Shown: piece after piece, positions 24,815 to 62,479 of the stretch
Layout of the letters: every line of letters starts with the position of its first letter
Position numbering within the stretch: the first letter of the stretch is position 1
Source: Elsinoe ampelina
Lineage: Eukaryota
Assembly (NCBI GenBank): GCA_010093995.1
Contig: ML992504.1
Location: 310,001 to 374,000 of the forward strand
Direction: 5' to 3'
Length of the DNA: 64,000 nt
Notes under the pieces: generated by a model
What the model saw: only the letters and a program-made list of their open reading frames with translations
Databases searched by the model: none
What the model was told of the DNA's origin: nothing
Position numbers and translations under genes: made by a program

Positions 24815-25820
24815 CTCGAGGTCTTCACAGCACGTGCACAGTGTTGCGATCACAAAAAGGTGAACTTAAGCATCAACTTTTCGAGGTCGCGAGTCAGCCA
24901 ACGCTCGGCCGAAGATTCACCGAGCGATGCATAAACCCTTCAGAAAATTTCCAGCTTCATCTCTTTTCTATCACAGATCTGTGGTCCAGTGTTTTTTGGC
25001 CTTCACGGGCTCAGAAGACACTGCACCAGCCCGGCATTTGGAGCCTTTCATTCTCCACCATGAGATACCTCCCGTCGACAGATCTACGAAGGACCACCTC
25101 TTGCACTGGGATTATCCAGGGCAGTCTCCGTTCTTGTTTGAGTCGGATCTTTCACATCTCACCGTCCCACCGCCACCGAGAACGCCTAAAAGAATTCCTA
25201 GAGTCTCTTCGTGAGACTCGGAACTGCTCGGTGGACGCGGGCGGCAGAGGGGGAGTGACGATGAGAGGCGGAGATCTCTTGGGGGGTGGAAGCGTCATAT
25301 TCCTAGGCGTTCCCTAGACTCTGTGTCTATAAGGGTTGGGCAAAACCATGTCGCTTACATACAATCATTTCCTTGCTGTGGTCCTGAGGCAGATCCTTCC
25401 GCGTAAAAGTGTCCAACCAACGTCTGCTTTCTACACTGTGCCAGGCATCAAGCAACACCAAGGGTGCCAATTTCCTACCATCGATTCACGATCAGGTCAC
25501 CGCTTCAAGAAGTCCTGCCTGATTTCAATCAATCTGCACGACGCTTGTACAGTCTTGACGTCTTTGCTATTGGTCTTGTGCTGTACGCCGACCAATACCA
25601 GGCCGCCAAGCGATACGCGTGAAAGCGGGACCGCTACTTTCATTCAGTTGTGGACAGGTACCTTTGCTTCCTCAACTACTATATGCGAATCTTCAACCGG
25701 CAGTTGGATGTAGATGCCTACTCGGTATTTGCCAATGGTGAACATTTAAAAATGTGGTCGGTGCCACATATACCTCGATGTAGGTACAAGGATCAACGAC
25801 CAGAATCTCATCTTATCACA

Positions 25821-51060: not shown

Positions 51061-52519
51061 TCAAAGACCGACACTGGCGAACATGCGCCTCTTCAACTCC
51101 TGTCCCATTGCCGTCCTGCTTCCAGATGTCCTTCCCGCAGCATCCTTGTTCTCAGCCGCACGCCTGAGCAAGTAGTTTAAGCACTGGGTCATCGTCCCCC
51201 AAGTCGTGCACTTGAACACCTGCGGCGCGTCTGCGGTATCGATACCTCGTGCCTCTGCAAGCAGCTCACAGCTGACTTCGTCCGCCATGCCTTGGAGCTG
51301 AGCATACTTGAGGGGCGTGAGTTCTTCACCGTTCTCGACTTGCTCCTTCCGAATTGCCTGTGCCTTTCTTGTTGTAGCCACATTGTGTGTTGCCAGCATC
51401 ACGTTGATCTCGGGAAACTTCTGCTCGGGAATCGCTGCTGTTAAAGGGGCATCAAACTTCCTCCTCAGTAGCGCAGCTGCAATGCCGTCGTAGTTGGCAT
51501 GTGTCGCCTCCGCCGAGTCCCAAATGAAATGCCGCTCCTCACTTCCCAAGTACGCACCGCGCACGAGCTTGATACCATGCGTGAAGCCTTCTTTGTTCGC
51601 CGTTGCCAGGTGGTGGCTGAGGATGTCGGCCGTACTGCGGAGGTATGCTTGATAGGTGCTGTAGACGATGGACCCGGCAGGTCCCCTATTGTATGCGCTC
51701 TGCATGTTGAGAGTCCACTTGTGGAAGGCGTCGAGTGTGTTGACTTCTTCGGCTGCCGGAAGGAGGTGCACCGTCTTTGTGTGTGCTGCTTCACAGACCT
51801 CTCGCATAGCGGAATCCATGAGTGGCGAAGGCTTGTCGGATGCCCTCATGCGCTTGTAAGCTGCTGTACCTAGCCCGGACCATCTGGAAAATGTCAGTTA
51901 TGGATCAAGGGTGATGTGTTGCTCGAGCATACTTGAGTCCGACAAAGTCACCTGGCCGTGCCATGTCGATCGTCTCGAGTAGTCCCTGGCGCCACACCTC
52001 GACGTCCTTGCCCTCGTCGGCGTCTTTTGCGTCTTTGAGCACTTCAAGCGCGTACTCAAGGATGACACCATGGTATCCAATCTTTTGAAGTTGTTGCATG
52101 CATTCTCGAGCTGACGGCTTGTCTTCACCTGCGCAGAACTGCTTGTAAAATGTCTCACGGAGCGCGAGGTTGATAAGCGGATTCCGCTCCACGTCGGTAA
52201 GCCATGATGACGAGCTGAGCAGACGCGTCAAGATGTTCTGAGACGCTGCGAGAAAGGTAGGAGATGATGATACTGATGTTATCAGGTAAGTCCGCAGTAC
52301 TTGTGATAGTGGTAGGCAGGCTAATGTGGTGCGTTCAGATGTTGTCGGTGCTGCTGACGAGCGTTTAGTGAGACCTTCAAAGGATGCCTGCACGGGACTG
52401 GTCGTCGTCAAGGATGCATGGCCGGGTCGAGAGGTATGCAGGCAACGAAGGGATGTTGCTTTGGTGGCCGGATGGAGGCCCGAGAACCTCGATAAAGCCG
52501 AAGGAGCTCTTGGCGGCAT
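51061..52519 (-). CDS. PUT1: Proline dehydrogenase, mitochondrial (intron 51884-51932)
   Basis: TFYKQFCAGE, VILEYALE, TYQAYL, GIKLVRGAY, MLATHN, QLQGMADE, YLLRRAAEN. Confidence 0.94.
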
Positions 52520-56307: not shown

Positions 56308-58704
56308 CTTGGTTGTTTGTATGTGTGTGGTGAGAGCTGTGGCAGTGGTCAGTAAGTGTTTAAATACACAGGCGAAGGTGCTGGGGTAGCCGCAAAGCGA
56401 CCGTCGCAGCGAGCTGCAGCGGAAGCTATTGAGCAACCTGCAGGGTGAGAGGCGATACTTACAGGCGTGGTGAGGTGGTGGGTTGGTTGAGGAGAAAGCG
56501 CTTTGTGAGGAATTGGCGAAGCTGGATAACTTCACCTGAGGCGGAGCCGCCTCCTCACTGGGTGGCTGGCCAATGAGCTCTTGGCACTACTTCACTTTGG
56601 GCAGGGCACAGAGCATTTCTTGCACTTCTGCGCTGGCAGACTTCATGCGGCATAGTGCAGGACGAGTCCTCAACCCTTCCGGCAGATGTGATTGTACAGC
56701 CAATGTAGGTTTGGTCATTAGCTGTGGCGTGTTTACCGTCAGCAAAGTAATGGGATTGCTATCACGAGTGCTGTCTACACAATGGACGGAAGCTGGCGAA
56801 CATCCATGGTCGAGAACGGCAGCGCGGACACGTCTTGGAAAGCGCAGCGATGTTGTAGCACCGGGCGGATTGTGAGGGCTGCCGTTGTCGACCATTTTTT
56901 GGCCTGGCCCAGAGGTATGGCTCTCAGCGCGATGCCTCATGATGTCTATTTCTCGACTCTGCTGTCTTGCGTTTTGCATGTTGGCAGCTCCGAAGACCGT
57001 TACTCGATTCATATGGGCATCAGCTTTTAGCATATCTTTGCACATAGAAGCATTGTCGTAACTGGTAAGGAGTCGCTGCCAACAATGCCTCTGGAAGCAG
57101 CACATACACATGACACGAGCTGCACTATCATGACCGTCAATTGTGTGAAGTGGACACATTGATGTCAACTGTCGAGACTCTCGACTCGATTGATTGCAAA
57201 GCGTCTATCTACAATGTACCACCTGACTACTGGTCCCTCATGCTTCTCTGCGAGGAACCAACCTTTGATCAGCTGGCGCCGCCCACTGCTGTTTGTAGCA
57301 GTGGACTTTGATCTTGGACTTGTATGCATGCCGAACAGCCATGGGATAGAGCTGGGGCACTTGACCCTGACCAGCCGAAGAGGTCGTCGAGGCGGGCGAG
57401 ACTTGGTCCGTTATGATGAGATACCCATCATTTCATGCGGTAAAAGGAGACCCAGGCGCTGCTTACCTGTTCATCGCTCCTTACAGCGAGCAGATCACGG
57501 AAAGGATGGCAAAAGCGCACACATGCAAAGATGAAAAGATGTACAACTGCTTCGAGCACCAAGCCTTGTCCTGAACGCTTGATGCAAGTGTAGCAGTGGC
57601 AACCGCGGACGCCTGGCTTGTTCAGGCACAGGCACGCTTTGATCTTGGGTCCTTGGCCGCTGGGATATCATCCTCCTCTGACAAGTCAGCGAGTCAATCC
57701 AGGATAGCTTCGGTCCCGTGGCGGCGACAAGCCGAAAGGTGACTCTTATCTTGACTGTCGAGAAAGGTGAAAAGGGATGAGTTGCAAGACACTCGACCAG
57801 TACTCAGCTGGCCAACACCGATACCGGTCGGACAAACACACACGTCACAGTCACAATGCACGAAGGAGATGACACAAGAATTTGTCTCGAGTATGTTCTA
57901 GCACTGTCGTGAGCAAGTCTCAACAACGCTTTCAGTAGCCCGAGTCAAGAAAGATTGCTCTCGGGCACGCCTCCGACGCCATCAGCTATGAAGAAGCCGA
58001 GACGTGCTCACGACCCGCCCAGCCCGTGAAGGCGGATGAGACCGTGTGGAGTGCATGCCCTTTGGGATAAGTACAAGATTGCATGTTGAGGGTACCGGCT
58101 TGCATGGCCGACTGAACGGACCTGAAGCGAATCGACAAGAGAAATGAAGACCAAACAAGAAAGCGAAACGACCTACCGAGTAAACTCACCGGCGAACTCA
58201 CGGGGAAACACCCCCAGACCCCGCTTGTCACGCACTCAATTGCACCGTTCAATGACCCGGACCACTAAATCTAGTCCGAGTCGGCCGAAGCGGTGGCGAA
58301 CATGGTTTTTGCTGTGGGGCGCGATTCAGGTTTGCAGCCATGGAATGTCTGTGCCTTATTCCGCCGCCCCGTGGCTGGTTCTCGCCGGTGTCGAAGGAGA
58401 ACGTCAAAGCCCTGCTTTGCCCTGGGAAAGAAGTCAGTAGGGAACTACCGCAGCACGGCATCCCGAAGCCCCCGCCCCATTGCATCTTGCCGGGACCAGG
58501 GCTCCGAGGTCATTGAGACGGATCTCGATCCTCGAAACCGCTGGCCGCTGTGGCGCTTGTGAAGGAGAACAGTGAGGTGGTGGTGAAGCCAGTGTTGGCT
58601 TGTTCTTGTTTGCTGGTACCTGTCTTTGAGGAAGGTCGGTGGAGCTCGGAGGGAAGTACTGGAACCGTCAGCATTCATTCTTGAACGGTGGAAGTGGTCG
58701 AGGT

Positions 58705-58845
58705 GAATGTATCCCGACGTCGGCCGAGCAGCTTTGAGGTCGGCACGCAGCCTGGCTGCCCAGTACACTGCCGGGACTGGTGTTTGATGTTGCCAGTGAC
58801 CAAAGCTCCACGACCGTGAGGCCGCTGAAACTCTGGCCAAGGGGC
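58705..58845 (-). ncRNA. Intronic box H/ACA-like RNA copy A
   Basis: H box ACATCA 58785-58790; hairpin 2 GTCCCGGC/GTCGGGAT; ACA 58708-58710. Confidence 0.7.
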
Positions 58846-58977
58846 GAGAGGTGAAGGGGAGGAAGAGAGTAGCGGCTTCCTTGACGATGAGAAACAGTTC
58901 GAAGGGCGAAAGGCGACAGTCTAAAGTCGAATTGGCTACACCTGAAGCCGTCAGCACTCATTCCATCCAGTGAGGTG

Positions 58978-59126
58978 CAATGTATCCCAGCATTTTATCC
59001 GAGCGGTGTTGAATTGGCACGAGGCCAGACCGCCCGAGACACAGCCGGGATTGGTTGATATTGCCTGACGGCCTGGGCTTCACAGAGTGGTACTCGAGCT
59101 GCGAAAACCCATGGAAACCGAGCGGC
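58978..59126 (-). ncRNA. Intronic box H/ACA-like RNA copy B
   Basis: H box ATATCA 59056-59061; ATCCCGGC/GCTGGGAT stem; ACA 58981-58983; GTAAGC donor. Confidence 0.78.
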
Positions 59127-59270
59127 GGGGGAAAAGTCGAAAGGGAAAGGACAGAACGAATGCTGCGGCTTACCTGAGGGGATCTTTGGCGAGTGAGTCG
59201 AGGCACTTGAGCCAGAGGGTTCGGGTTGAAAGATCTGAAGCCGTCAGCACTCATCCCATCCAATGAGGTG

Positions 59271-59423
59271 CAATGTATCCCAGCATCTTATCCGAGCGGT
59301 GGTGGATTGGCACGAGGCCAGACCGCTCAGTACACAGCCGGGATTGGTGTTTGATATTGCCTTAACGGCCTGGGCTCCACAGAGTGGTACTCGAGCTGTG
59401 GAAACCCATGGAAACCGAGCGGC
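59271..59423 (-). ncRNA. Intronic box H/ACA-like RNA copy C
   Basis: H box ATATCA 59352-59357; upper stem CTGAGCGGT/ACCGCTCGG ends 15 nt before ACA 59274-59276. Confidence 0.8.
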
Positions 59424-59569
59424 GGGGGAAAAGTCGGAAGGGGAGAGAACAGGACGAATGCTGCGGCTTACCTCGGTGAATGTTTGGCGGTTGAGTTGGA
59501 GCTGTTCGGTTGTGGGAGTTGAGTTGGGATATCTGAAGCCGTCAGCACTCTATTCCAACCGGTGTAGTG

Positions 59570-59708
59570 GAATGTATCCCAGCATCATCCCGAGCGGTGT
59601 TGGTGTGGCACGAAGCCAGACCGCTCAGTAACAGCTGGGACTGGTATTTGATGTTGCCCTTGAGAAACGCACCACAGCCATGAGGCTGCCGAGCACGAGA
59701 TCAAGGGC
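59570..59708 (-). ncRNA. Intronic box H/ACA-like RNA copy D
   Basis: Hairpin 1 GCCCTTGA/TCAAGGGC; H box ACATCA 59649-59654; upper stem ends 14 nt before ACA 59573-59575. Confidence 0.82.
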
Positions 59709-59851
59709 GGGGATGAGGGGGGTGACGGAAAGGGGAAGCAGAAGGTCTAGAGTGCTGCGGCTTACCTGAAGGATTGGTCGATGAAGGATGGTTGAGAGTT
59801 GGGTCGAAAATATCTGAAGCCGTCAGCACTCCATTCCAACTGGGTGCAGTG

Positions 59852-59991
59852 GAATGTATCCCAGCATCATCCCGAGCGGTGGTGATTTGGCACGAGGCCA
59901 GACCGCTCAGTAACAACTAGGACTGGTATTTGCTATTGCCTCGCGATTGAGTCCCCACAGCCATGAGGCTGCCGAGCGCAAGATCGCGGGC
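59852..59991 (-). ncRNA. Intronic box H/ACA-like RNA copy E
   Basis: Hairpin 1 CGCGAT/ATCGCG; H box ATAGCA 59931-59936; ACA 59855-59857. Confidence 0.8.
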
Positions 59992-60158
59992 GGGGATGAG
60001 GGGGGTGACGGAAAGGGGAAGCAGAAGGTCTAGAGTGCTGCGGCTTACCTTGAGGAGGGTTGACGAGTGGTGGTCGATGACGGGTTGGACGATGAAGTGT
60101 GGTCGAGCGTTGGGTCGAAAACATCTGAAGCCGTCAGCACTCGTCAATCTGGCGTGGT

Positions 60159-60294
60159 TGATGTATCCCAGCATCACCCGAGCAGCGTCGCGTTGGCACG
60201 AGGCCAGGCTACCCGGTACACAACTGGGACTTCGATCTTGCCCGGCGATCAGGGCTCCACAACCGTGAGGCTGCTGAAACCAAGACCAAGGGGC
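60159..60294 (-). ncRNA. Intronic box H/ACA-like RNA copy F (degenerate H box)
   Basis: Hinge shortened (AGATCG); hairpin 2 intact; ACA 60162-60164; donor ATAAGC. Confidence 0.65.
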
Positions 60295-60428
60295 GAGAAG
60301 GTGAGGGTGATTGAGAGTGCTGCAGCTTATTTGAGAGAGCTGACACTGATGGCGGCTATCCTGGATGGAAGGAGGAAGAGTCTGGGTCCTGTCAGCTTCA
60401 ATCGAAGTTGAGTCATGGTTGGATGGTG

Positions 60429-60566
60429 TGGTGTATCTCGACGTTACCCTCGCAGCCTATAGGTTGGCCCGAAGACCTGCTGTTTGAGACACTGCCGAGA
60501 CTGGTATTTGATCTTGCCCGGGCCGAAACTCCTCAGCCGTCAGGCTGGGAAGGCAGGACCAAGGGC
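60429..60566 (-). ncRNA. Intronic box H/ACA-like RNA copy G
   Basis: H box AGATCA 60509-60514; GTCTCGGC/GTCGAGAT; ACA 60432-60434; donor GTCGGT. Confidence 0.75.
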
Positions 60567-60684
60567 GTGTGATGCTTGGGGAAGGAAAAGGGATAGGACC
60601 GACCTTGAGGTTGACTTTGACTCTGAAAAGGGTAGGAAGACCTGGGTCCTGTCAGCTTCGTTCGAAGATGAGTCGTTGGTGTAT

Positions 60685-60821
60685 GGGTGTATCTCGACGT
60701 CTACCCTCACAGCATGGAAGTGGCACAAGGCCTGCTGATTGGAACACTGTCGAGACTGGTGTTTGATCTTGCCACGACCAAGACTCCTCAACCGTGGGGT
60801 TGAGAAGGCATGGTCAAGGGC
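60685..60821 (-). ncRNA. Intronic box H/ACA-like RNA copy H
   Basis: H box AGATCA 60764-60769; GTCTCGAC/GTCGAGAT; ACA 60688-60690; donor position CTCGGT. Confidence 0.72.
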
Positions 60822-60923
60822 GAAAGGGTTGGTGAGAGGAGGAACAAGACCGAGCTTGATGATGAATGATGGGGATGTATCTGGGTCCTGTCAGCTTTAT
60901 GCGAAGAAGAGTCTTGGATGATG

Positions 60924-61060
60924 GAATGTATCTCGGCTTTTACCCTCACAGCTTGGAAGTGGCACGAAGCCTGCTGCTGGGGACACTGCCGAGACTGGTG
61001 TTTGCTCTTGCCACGACCAGGACTCTCCAACCATGGGGCTGGAAAGGCAAGGCTAGGGGC
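60924..61060 (-). ncRNA. Intronic box H/ACA-like RNA copy I
   Basis: H box AGAGCA 61003-61008; GTCTCGGC/GCCGAGAT; ACA 60927-60929; donor GTCGGT. Confidence 0.75.
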
Positions 61061-61259
61061 GTGTTGTGGATGGAGGATGGGGGGACAGGACCGACCTTGA
61101 GTAGTTGACAAAGCACAATGTGGTGGGGTCATCTTCGACATCAGACTCTGGATCAACAACAACACTGGCTCATGTTAGTATAGGTAAGAAGGTGTGGGGA
61201 AGAGGGACTTATCTTGCAAAGGACCAGGAGCTCGAAGGTACCTTGCTAAGAGGTGAGAA

Positions 61260-61391
61260 GTATGTTGCACTGCTTTACTACCGCCGATGAGGAGGACTTT
61301 GTCTCATCGGCAGTCGATTGCAGAGCTTTTGATCTTGGCTGTTGCTGGTCACCATGAAGACATGGATGTCTTCTGATGAAAAGCTGGAGCC
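61260..61391 (-). ncRNA. Sequence-unrelated intronic box H/ACA-like RNA (J)
   Basis: Hairpin 1 with GAAGACAT/ATGTCTTC, H box AGATCA 61330-61335, hairpin 2 ACTGCCGATGAG/CTCATCGGCGGT ending 14 nt before ACA 61263-61265; within GTGAGC...TAG intron 61246-61427. Confidence 0.7.
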
Positions 61392-61993
61392 GGACTTGGT
61401 GTTGTGATGGGAGCAGGTGAGGCTCACAGGAGGTGAAGTGGTTGAGGAGGGGTAAGTTGGTGAGTTTTTCTGTTTGAGGTCAGTTGATGTCGTTGCTGTG
61501 GAGGGTAAGTCTACTTATCTTCTTCTTTTTGGTTATCTGAAAGCTTGGTTGTGATGTGCGATGGTGTTGTTGGAGTAGGTGGTGTTGGTCGAAGCTGGTG
61601 CGACCGGTGAGATGGAGGTTGAAGAGCTCTTAAAAGTTTCAAAAACCATCCAAAGGGTGATGAAAGCTGGTATAGAGCATTAGCTTTGCCAGTAGGAGCT
61701 TGGCTACTTACTTGAGGTTGTTGTTGAGTAAGATGTTGGCTGTTGTCTAAGGAGAAGTGAGGGGAGGGAGGCGGAGGTTGGAGTGAGCTTGCCGGTCGGC
61801 AGCGAGGTAAGTGAGAAGGTAAGAAATTGGCTCGGTGGCCTCTCGTGCATTTGAGTGTGCTAATGTACAGGCTGCTCTTCTGGGTATCTGTCATCGTCGC
61901 CGCCGGCTGAAGAGCGAGCGATAGTCAGTGGCGGTCGCGTGTGGTATGGGTAGAGGGTGAAGGGTCACTTACAGCTCGAGCTCGTCATTATCA

Positions 61994-62205
61994 TCAGCGA
62001 CGGTCAGCTCTCTTCTCCCTCCTCTCCATCATCTCCCACCATACTCTGACGATCATATCGATCGTCGCCGCCGCCCTTGCACCGACGAAATGACGGGCAC
62101 CAAGGCCCCGGAGGAGTGCGCGGATCTCTGCGAGTAAAAAGTCAGTTCGGGGTCTGCGATCACGCGATAATGATTGTAGAAAGACATACCACGCAGGTTG
62201 AACAT
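61994..62205 (-). CDS. Putative 49-aa spliced micro-ORF at the 5' end of the H/ACA host transcript
   Basis: MFNLR|EIRALLRGLGARHFVGARAAATIDMIVRVWWEMMERREKRADRR after removing GTATGT..ACTGAC..CAG intron 62128-62189; ends in four consecutive in-frame stops. Confidence 0.35.
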
Positions 62206-62479
62206 GGTTAGACCGTTGTGATGGTCTTTGATTGCTGTTTGGAAGCTTGGTTGCTTGTGGTGGTTGAGGTTTTGTGGTGATGGTAAGCATGAAGCTAGGG
62301 GGCAAAATTTGAAGCTTTATTCACTGTGCGCGGCTGACGAAAAGGGCCAACCGGAGCAGCAACAATAGGAAGCGAAAATGACTGGTCCTATGGCAACGGA
62401 TTAGGCATAGTCCATGCCGCCCAATCACTGCCCTGTTTTGGAGACTGATTTAGCTGCCTCCTCACGCGACAAAGTCTCC

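Follow-up and report, generated by a model that had tools for sequence, protein, structure and literature searches.

Box H/ACA small nucleolar RNAs (snoRNAs) of fungi are mostly encoded by single-copy, independently transcribed genes; in Neurospora crassa, 16 of the 20 H/ACA genes lie between other genes and two within introns, and nearly all snoRNAs are singletons, with isoforms being rare (PMC2780460). A survey of 147 fungal species reports 56 H/ACA families, seven of them orphan and several confined to a genus or a species, and the word "tandem" is absent from its main text (PMC5824354); a screen for structural RNAs in fungi describes single-copy H/ACA RNAs, one of which is intronic (PMC8216456). 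In the filamentous fungus Fusarium graminearum, the production of intronic snoRNAs is reported to depend on the debranching enzyme (PMC9606315). This report concerns a window of 64,000 nucleotides (nt) from Elsinoe ampelina (assembly GCA_010093995.1, contig ML992504.1, positions 310,001 to 374,000 of the forward strand; positions given below are those of the window), whose minus strand carries nine head-to-tail units between 61164 and 58659. Each of them contains an RNA element of the H/ACA type, and together they probably represent a lineage-restricted orphan family of H/ACA-class snoRNAs that multiplied through tandem duplication inside a non-coding host.

Among the systems closest to such an arrangement are those of Drosophila, where Huang et al. 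(2004) reportedly described intronic box H/ACA snoRNA gene clusters; in these, as in the cis-duplications of vertebrates, a single host gene contains several H/ACA paralogues. The fly RNAs are guides for ribosomal RNA (rRNA), a kind of target for which the E. ampelina array gave no match above chance in a stand-in fungal sequence. The introner-like elements of fungi are another point of comparison: they are structured introns that occur in many copies, bring splice signals of their own and are dispersed in many protein-coding genes; the copies of the array are instead tandem, lie in one non-coding locus, and are constrained in their internal H and ACA boxes. Host genes of the UHG/gas5 kind, known from animals and from clusters I-V of N. 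crassa, resemble the array in their short non-conserved exons, their lack of coding potential and a snoRNA in roughly every apparent intron, but the UHG-like non-coding N. crassa clusters contain unrelated box C/D RNAs only, whereas the array has nine copies of one H/ACA RNA and three of its nine introns are donor-less (PMC2780460). In architecture, the array resembles the mammalian SNORD115/SNORD116 and 14q32 arrays, which are likewise tandem exon-intron cassettes with paralogous orphan snoRNAs, a non-coding host and birth-and-death evolution (PMC4063771, PMC2653536); they are, however, box C/D arrays of tens of copies and imprinted in mammals, while the present one is a putative H/ACA array, has nine copies and is fungal. 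For vertebrates, a paper on chicken also describes intragenic tandem "cis-duplication" of snoRNAs (PMC2653536). Finally, the units agree with box H/ACA snoRNAs at large in the succession hairpin-hinge (ANANNA)-hairpin-ACA, in a length of about 135-141 nt, in the 12-16 nt that separate ACA from an internal loop and in compensatory stem changes; they depart from them in having neither an Rfam match nor a target in the stand-in rRNA, and in being nine tandem paralogues, as opposed to the mostly independent singletons described for fungi (PMC2780460).

Regarding the layout, the unit span varies between 239 and 311 bp (284, 239, 260, 257, 311, 281, 298, 293 and 283 bp from U1 to U9; Table 1), and three landmarks are in register in all nine units: the hinge motif GGCAA-N-A-N-C, the motif G[AG]GATACA (starting, on the minus strand, at 60934, 60695, 60439, 60169, 59862, 59580, 59281, 58988 and 58715), and GCTGAC[AG]G followed by CAG. 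In the rest of the window these motifs recur out of register, twice, six times and twice, respectively. The covariance model R1, built from the nine RNA bodies and run on the whole window, gave scores of 117-144 bits for the nine copies and 8.2 bits for its next-best hit; a pattern joining the hinge and ACA motifs matched seven of the nine units, against an expectation of 0.00 from 100 shuffles. The two youngest pairs were the only ones that Tandem Repeats Finder detected (84% at period 298 and 89% at period 283), the older copies being too diverged for it. Contigs from the runs of two further studies include pieces of the array with 95-100% identity, one of them spanning 60349-60749, so the array is not an artefact of a single assembly or data set. 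The nine-unit array on the minus strand is real, as a first-pass annotation of this DNA had proposed; the same annotation had raised the possibility of a dispersed transposable element or introner, and within the 64 kb R1 found no copy outside the array.

As for the RNA element, folding of single copies with RNAfold returned the hairpin-hinge-hairpin-ACA element of about 135-141 nt in every unit, with energies from -49.5 to -66.4 kcal/mol and z-scores from -1.65 to -6.18, eight of the nine being below -2.7. ANANNA is found in the hinge of eight copies, and not in each of them as first described: u4 reads AGATCG and has lost five hinge bases. ACA directly abuts the lower stem in all nine copies, and its distance from the upper stem is 12-16 nt (13, 13, 12, 13, 14, 14, 15, 16 and 13 from u1 to u9), close to the 14-16 nt at which the top of the pocket lies from the box in H/ACA guides; the first-pass annotation had given about 13-15 nt, where countable. 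The covarying stems quoted in that annotation are all present, and the RNAalifold check it suggested gave a consensus of 28 pairs, nine of which have changes on both sides. Standard pairs make up 95.2% of the 250 cells of this alignment, a share that falls to 26.5-44.5% once the 3' partners are shifted by 1-3 columns, double-sided changes drop from nine to 2-4 in the same comparison, and the covariation score was matched by none of 500 shuffles; these statistics are to be read with the structure derived from the same sequences and the copies related to each other. In the lower stem of the 3' hairpin all 72 cells are paired, and its pairs 6 and 7 occur, depending on the copy, as G-C/G-C, G-C/A-U, G-C/G-U, A-U/G-C and G-U/G-C. 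The 5' hairpin is less regular, since its build varies from copy to copy and it has no conserved internal loop or pocket.

Divergence among the copies is distributed unevenly. Mean pairwise identity is 0.41 for the "exon" (with many gaps), 0.51 for the 5' intron flank and 0.42 for the 3' flank; it rises to 0.58 in the 5' hairpin, 0.71 in the 3' hairpin, 0.82 in the apical hairpin, 0.84 in the H box plus hinge, 0.85 in the branch-acceptor region and 1.0 in ACA. This pattern points to an embedded structured RNA with 3' splice signals and not to a uniformly decaying satellite or a coding repeat. A coding repeat was also rejected directly: the 13 open reading frames (ORFs) of the array, taken from both strands, contain no Pfam family at E ≤ 0.01 (one chance-level match had 0.094), and the unit lengths, none of them a multiple of 3, are out of frame. 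U5 and U6 are mosaic with respect to each other (59992-60048 against 59708-59765), having 0 mismatches out of 59 in the donor and 5' flank and 13 out of 51 in the 5' hairpin, a pattern suggestive of conversion or of unequal exchange among the units. Repeat-induced point mutation was discarded as a source of the divergence, given that changes of the type CpA to or from TpA plus TpG to or from TpA account for only 5 of the 35 differences between U5 and U6, 1 of 43 between U7 and U8, and 2 of 60 between U1 and U2.

The apparent splice signals are kept in all units at the 3' end only. The branch GCTGAC and the CAG of the acceptor are invariant in the nine units; six of them have a GT donor at the homologous position, GTCGGT in U1 and U3 and GTAAGC in U5-U8, so the claim of a donor in every unit did not hold. 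Other GTs in the corresponding stretches of U2, U4 and U9 are poor, the best being GTCAGC in U4, and U2 has only GTCTTG and GTTCCT upstream of its RNA. The idea that whole exon-intron cassettes were amplified is supported by the sequence, and the scheme of one cassette per RNA is valid for the six units with a donor; in the remaining three, the RNA either lies in one intron together with the RNA upstream of it or is exonic, or else the copy is dying. Exons, where both ends are defined, measure 38-76 nt; they are poorly conserved and contain no Pfam family.

The array appears to be part of a longer non-coding transcription unit. The GC skew of the plus strand is +0.19 to +0.39 over 58500-62000 and near zero or negative outside, the minus strand being C-rich there, and intron-like signals occur on the minus strand (GTAAGT or GTGAGC donors, CTGAC or TACTAAC branches, CAG). 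The intron just upstream of the array, with its TACTAAC branch at about 61180 and the acceptor G at 61165, holds another H/ACA-like RNA, sno0, which lies outside the coordinates of the first-pass annotation. It folds into two hairpins (RNAfold, -54.2 kcal/mol, z -6.81, with none of 200 shuffles as good), and its upper stem is 14 nt from ACA; its sequence is unrelated to the nine copies, with no match to R1 at E ≤ 10 and none in Rfam. An unrelated H/ACA-like RNA in the neighbouring intron is as expected of a snoRNA host gene. On the other side, 58575-58436 was considered as a further copy and not accepted, as its z-score of -1.10 is no better than that of shuffles, the alignment with U9 and U3 is unconvincing and R1 gives no match; it might represent a decayed copy with an internal deletion.

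Table 1. Units, RNA elements and associated features in window positions; all are on the minus strand
Feature	Position	Exon and splice signals	RNA boxes and remarks	R1 (bits)
U1	60881..61164	exon 61164-61096; donor GTCGGT 61095; branch GCTGAC 60895; acceptor G 60881		
u1 RNA	~61056-60924		H box AGAGCA 61008; ACA 60929-60927	136.7
U2	60642..60880	donor place CTCGGT 60854-60849 (no GT); branch 60656; acceptor G 60642		
u2 RNA	~60818-60685		H box AGATCA 60769; ACA 60690-60688	135.7
U3	60382..60641	exon 60641-60604; donor GTCGGT 60603; branch 60396; acceptor G 60382		
u3 RNA	~60564-60429		H box 60514; ACA 60434-60432; weakest fold, z -1.65	120.7
U4	60125..60381	donor place ATAAGC (no GT), possible GTCAGC 60344; branch 60138; acceptor G 60125		
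u4 RNA	~60296-60159		AGATCG replaces ANANNA; 5-nt hinge deletion; ACA 60164-60162	132.1
U5	59814..60124	exon 60124-60049; donor GTAAGC 60048; branch 59827; acceptor G 59814		
u5 RNA	~59992-59852		H box ATAGCA 59936; ACA 59857-59855; z -4.13	142.3
U6	59533..59813	exon 59813-59766; donor GTAAGC 59765; branch 59546; acceptor G 59533		
u6 RNA	~59708-59570		H box ACATCA 59654; ACA 59575-59573; z -6.18	144.5
U7	59235..59532	exon 59532-59472; donor GTAAGC 59471; branch 59248; acceptor G 59235		
u7 RNA	~59420-59271		H box ATATCA 59357; ACA 59276-59274	123.8
U8	58942..59234	exon 59234-59174; donor GTAAGC 59173; branch 58955; acceptor G 58942		
u8 RNA	~59123-58978		H box ATATCA 59061; 3-nt hinge deletion; ACA 58983-58981	117.4
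U9	58659..58941	donor place G-AAGC (T missing, no GT); branch 58672; acceptor G 58659		
u9 RNA	~58846-58705		H box ACATCA 58790; ACA 58710-58708	135.5
sno0, H/ACA-like	61246..61392		H box AGATCA 61335-61330; ACA 61265-61263	
Possible decayed relic	58436..58575	next apparent intron	GGCAAGATGCAA, GTCCCGGC...TTCGGGAT; no ACA; weak	
Proposed non-coding host gene	58430..62300 (approximate, putative limits)	skew, intron-like signals		

To the interpretation already given, of an orphan H/ACA-class family amplified in tandem within a non-coding host, a rough probability of 0.6 is assigned. According to it, one H/ACA RNA, together with a short exon and its intron signals, would have given rise to the nine paralogues by repeated tandem duplication through unequal crossover. 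The host gene, placed on the minus strand at about 62.3-58.4 kb, would be transcribed by RNA polymerase II; Cbf5, Nop10, Nhp2 and later Gar1 would assemble on every hairpin-H-hairpin-ACA element, the introns would be freed by splicing and debranching, and exonucleases would trim them to ribonucleoproteins (RNPs) with RNAs of about 135-141 nt ending 3 nt after ACA, leaving the spliced exons as a by-product. Selection would have kept both boxes, the lower and upper stems, the apical hairpin and the 3' splice signals and not the 3' pocket strand, so that the copies would be orphan with respect to rRNA, having either no target or differing non-rRNA targets; U2, U4 and U9 would be decaying, or their RNAs would be released from a two-RNA intron or trimmed from an exon.

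Several results weigh against this interpretation, starting with the units themselves. Three of the nine (U2, U4 and U9) have no GT at the homologous donor place, one (u4) has no H box, and the pocket is ill defined in u1-u3 because the upper stem is interrupted. The 3' pocket strand has an identity of 0.46, as variable as the flanks, which leaves eight different pockets among the nine copies; the 5' pocket strand is fairly conserved (0.74), reading [A/U]GUGU[A/C] or UGUUA. In comparisons with known sequences, the Infernal search against Rfam that had been suggested along with the first-pass annotation returned for 57500-62000, at E ≤ 10, only a chance row for CRISPR-DR15 and no H/ACA family. 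A metagenome scan with the hinge and ACA pattern gave no matches, and one with the ACA and branch pattern gave five loci, about the number expected by chance from a rough estimate, none of which matched R1 at E ≤ 10. As no relative was found, the covariation rests on the paralogues of one locus, some of them linked by gene conversion.

The search for targets points in the same direction. The pockets were scanned against a stand-in, a complete fungal-type ribosomal DNA (rDNA) repeat on a contaminant contig of a prokaryote assembly, which is not the repeat of E. ampelina; Rfam recognised in it 18S, 5.8S and 25S, the last with a group I intron. The bipartite pairing of each pocket was tested at every U of this repeat, and in the control all 50 synthetic guides were recovered. 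Scanning whole pockets with one mismatch allowed gave seven weak rows, all of which contain a mismatch as well as 1-5 G-U pairs. In a second scan, at least four contiguous pairs were required on each side and the upper stem could open by 0-2 pairs; whatever the unit or setting, no fewer than 29 of 200 rRNA shuffles did as well as the best real site or better, and when sites were ranked by mismatches the best real one was reached by 76-257 of 300 shuffles. The pockets of sno0 had no better-than-shuffle target in the stand-in 18S, 5.8S and 25S either. With no site above chance in the stand-in rRNA, the copies are orphans with respect to conserved fungal rRNA, and with 3' pocket strands differing in eight of nine copies no single target can be common to them; the term "guide array" of the first-pass annotation is therefore doubtful, and in the sense of rRNA guides it is probably wrong. 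That annotation is supported on the class of the RNA and on the amplification as cassettes, and the release by splicing is a prediction. Being orphan does not remove an RNA from the H/ACA class, which is accepted to include such members. As a side observation on the rDNA, the exact 3' end of a eukaryotic 18S occurs in more than 51 contigs of assemblies filed as bacterial or archaeal, and these contigs look like contaminant rDNA; in one contaminant contig of 24 kb, fungal-type rDNA repeats follow each other in tandem at a spacing of about 10.2 kb, and their 25S has a group I intron.

Much of this evidence would also suit an array that is mostly dead, that is, an intronic H/ACA snoRNA that was amplified and most or all of whose copies are now diverging pseudogenes, unexpressed or non-functional, with the apparent constraint reflecting ancestry and gene conversion. 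The unconstrained 3' pocket strand, the loss of three donors and one H box, the failure to find an rRNA target in the stand-in scan, the possible decayed relic downstream and the mosaic identity of U5 and U6, typical of conversion, all agree with it; nevertheless, copies whose RNA bodies are only 55-65% identical still pair in every lower-stem cell, with several independent double changes, and ACA and the branch-acceptor signals are invariant next to flanks at 0.41-0.51, a contrast unexpected under uniform decay; a mostly dead array is unlikely. The opposite extreme, in which the copies are canonical rRNA pseudouridylation guides kept redundant for dosage, is hard to sustain: the absence, for any pocket, of a site in the stand-in 18S, 5.8S and 25S that beats shuffles is mitigated by the scanned rDNA not being that of the organism, and both the geometry and the fairly conserved 5' pocket strand are right for guides, but the divergence of the 3' pocket strand makes a shared target impossible, and the explanation is very improbable. 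A role of the snR30/U17 type is not suggested either, as the internal-loop motifs regarded as conserved in that family are not seen in the units.

A further explanation dispenses with the snoRNA altogether and regards the unit as a structured-intron cassette, comparable to an introner, whose hairpins serve splicing or spread without any Cbf5 RNP and whose H/ACA motifs are coincidental. In its favour, a branch and an acceptor come with every unit, the folding of the units is strong, motifs as short as ANANNA and ACA carry little information, and neither a known H/ACA family nor a target was matched. Against it, the best-kept parts are internal (the hinge, GATACA in all nine units and the apical hairpin) and not at the 5' end of the intron; moreover, ACA abuts the lower stem in all the copies, with the pocket 12-16 nt away, a single non-coding locus contains all the copies in tandem and none is found elsewhere in the 64 kb, and a neighbouring intron has an unrelated RNA with the same H/ACA layout. 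A cassette of this kind is accordingly quite doubtful.

Returning to the orphan H/ACA family, it can be taken one step further, to a lineage-specific orphan H/ACA RNP locus that is expressed and acts as a unit, not as rRNA guides, and that could parallel arrays of the SNORD116 type; this extension is speculative and, on present evidence, unlikely. In it, the 3' pocket strands, being free to evolve, may try out new targets other than rRNA. The donor-less junctions U1-U2, U3-U4 and U8-U9 may yield introns with two H/ACA RNPs, and with them snoRNA-ended long RNAs of the same kind as SLERT, which is a snoRNA-ended long RNA.

As for its significance, an orphan family at this locus, if true, would mean that the birth-and-death amplification of animal snoRNA loci also acts in a filamentous fungus, and it would provide a small, genetically tractable locus for the function of orphan H/ACA RNPs and for the origin of new guide specificities; if the RNAs are unexpressed, the locus would be a decaying repeat only. 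Tandem snoRNA arrays of this sort are known in animals, and a fungal H/ACA case would be new to the literature found: the first-pass annotation was aware of no described fungal equivalent, and no tandem H/ACA array in fungi was found in the literature searched, with supplements lying outside the search.

Some features around the array deserve mention on their own. At the 5' end of the proposed host, about 61995-62233 on the minus strand, there is a short ATG-started frame interrupted by a GTATGT...CAG intron of small size; the frame may belong to the host transcript or form a little gene of its own, and Pfam gave no match for the stop-to-stop frames that overlap it. Six sequencing runs, none of them recorded as RNA, contain this stretch or parts of it; contig pieces from them run unspliced across the exon-intron borders, and no joints, starts or loose ends occur in the contigs of the four runs that were compared with the window. 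Since the kind of library can only be guessed, these contigs were not used for or against expression, splicing or copy number. In the contigs of one run, depth is about 40 over 56500-61702 and 2-11 beyond, with a hole between (about 61702-61830); the break is 9 nt inside the start of a GTAAGT intron, where a transcript end, a strain difference and a filter are indistinguishable, and it was not used as evidence. At the gathering score, the only Rfam match in the whole window is Afu_309 (24958-25362, plus strand, 51.3 bits, full-length model), a small RNA of Aspergillus fumigatus without an assigned role, in keeping with DNA from a filamentous ascomycete. The nearest recognisable protein gene, about 7 kb from the array, encodes a proline dehydrogenase (51061-51897, minus strand; Pfam Pro_dh, E 6.7e-46).

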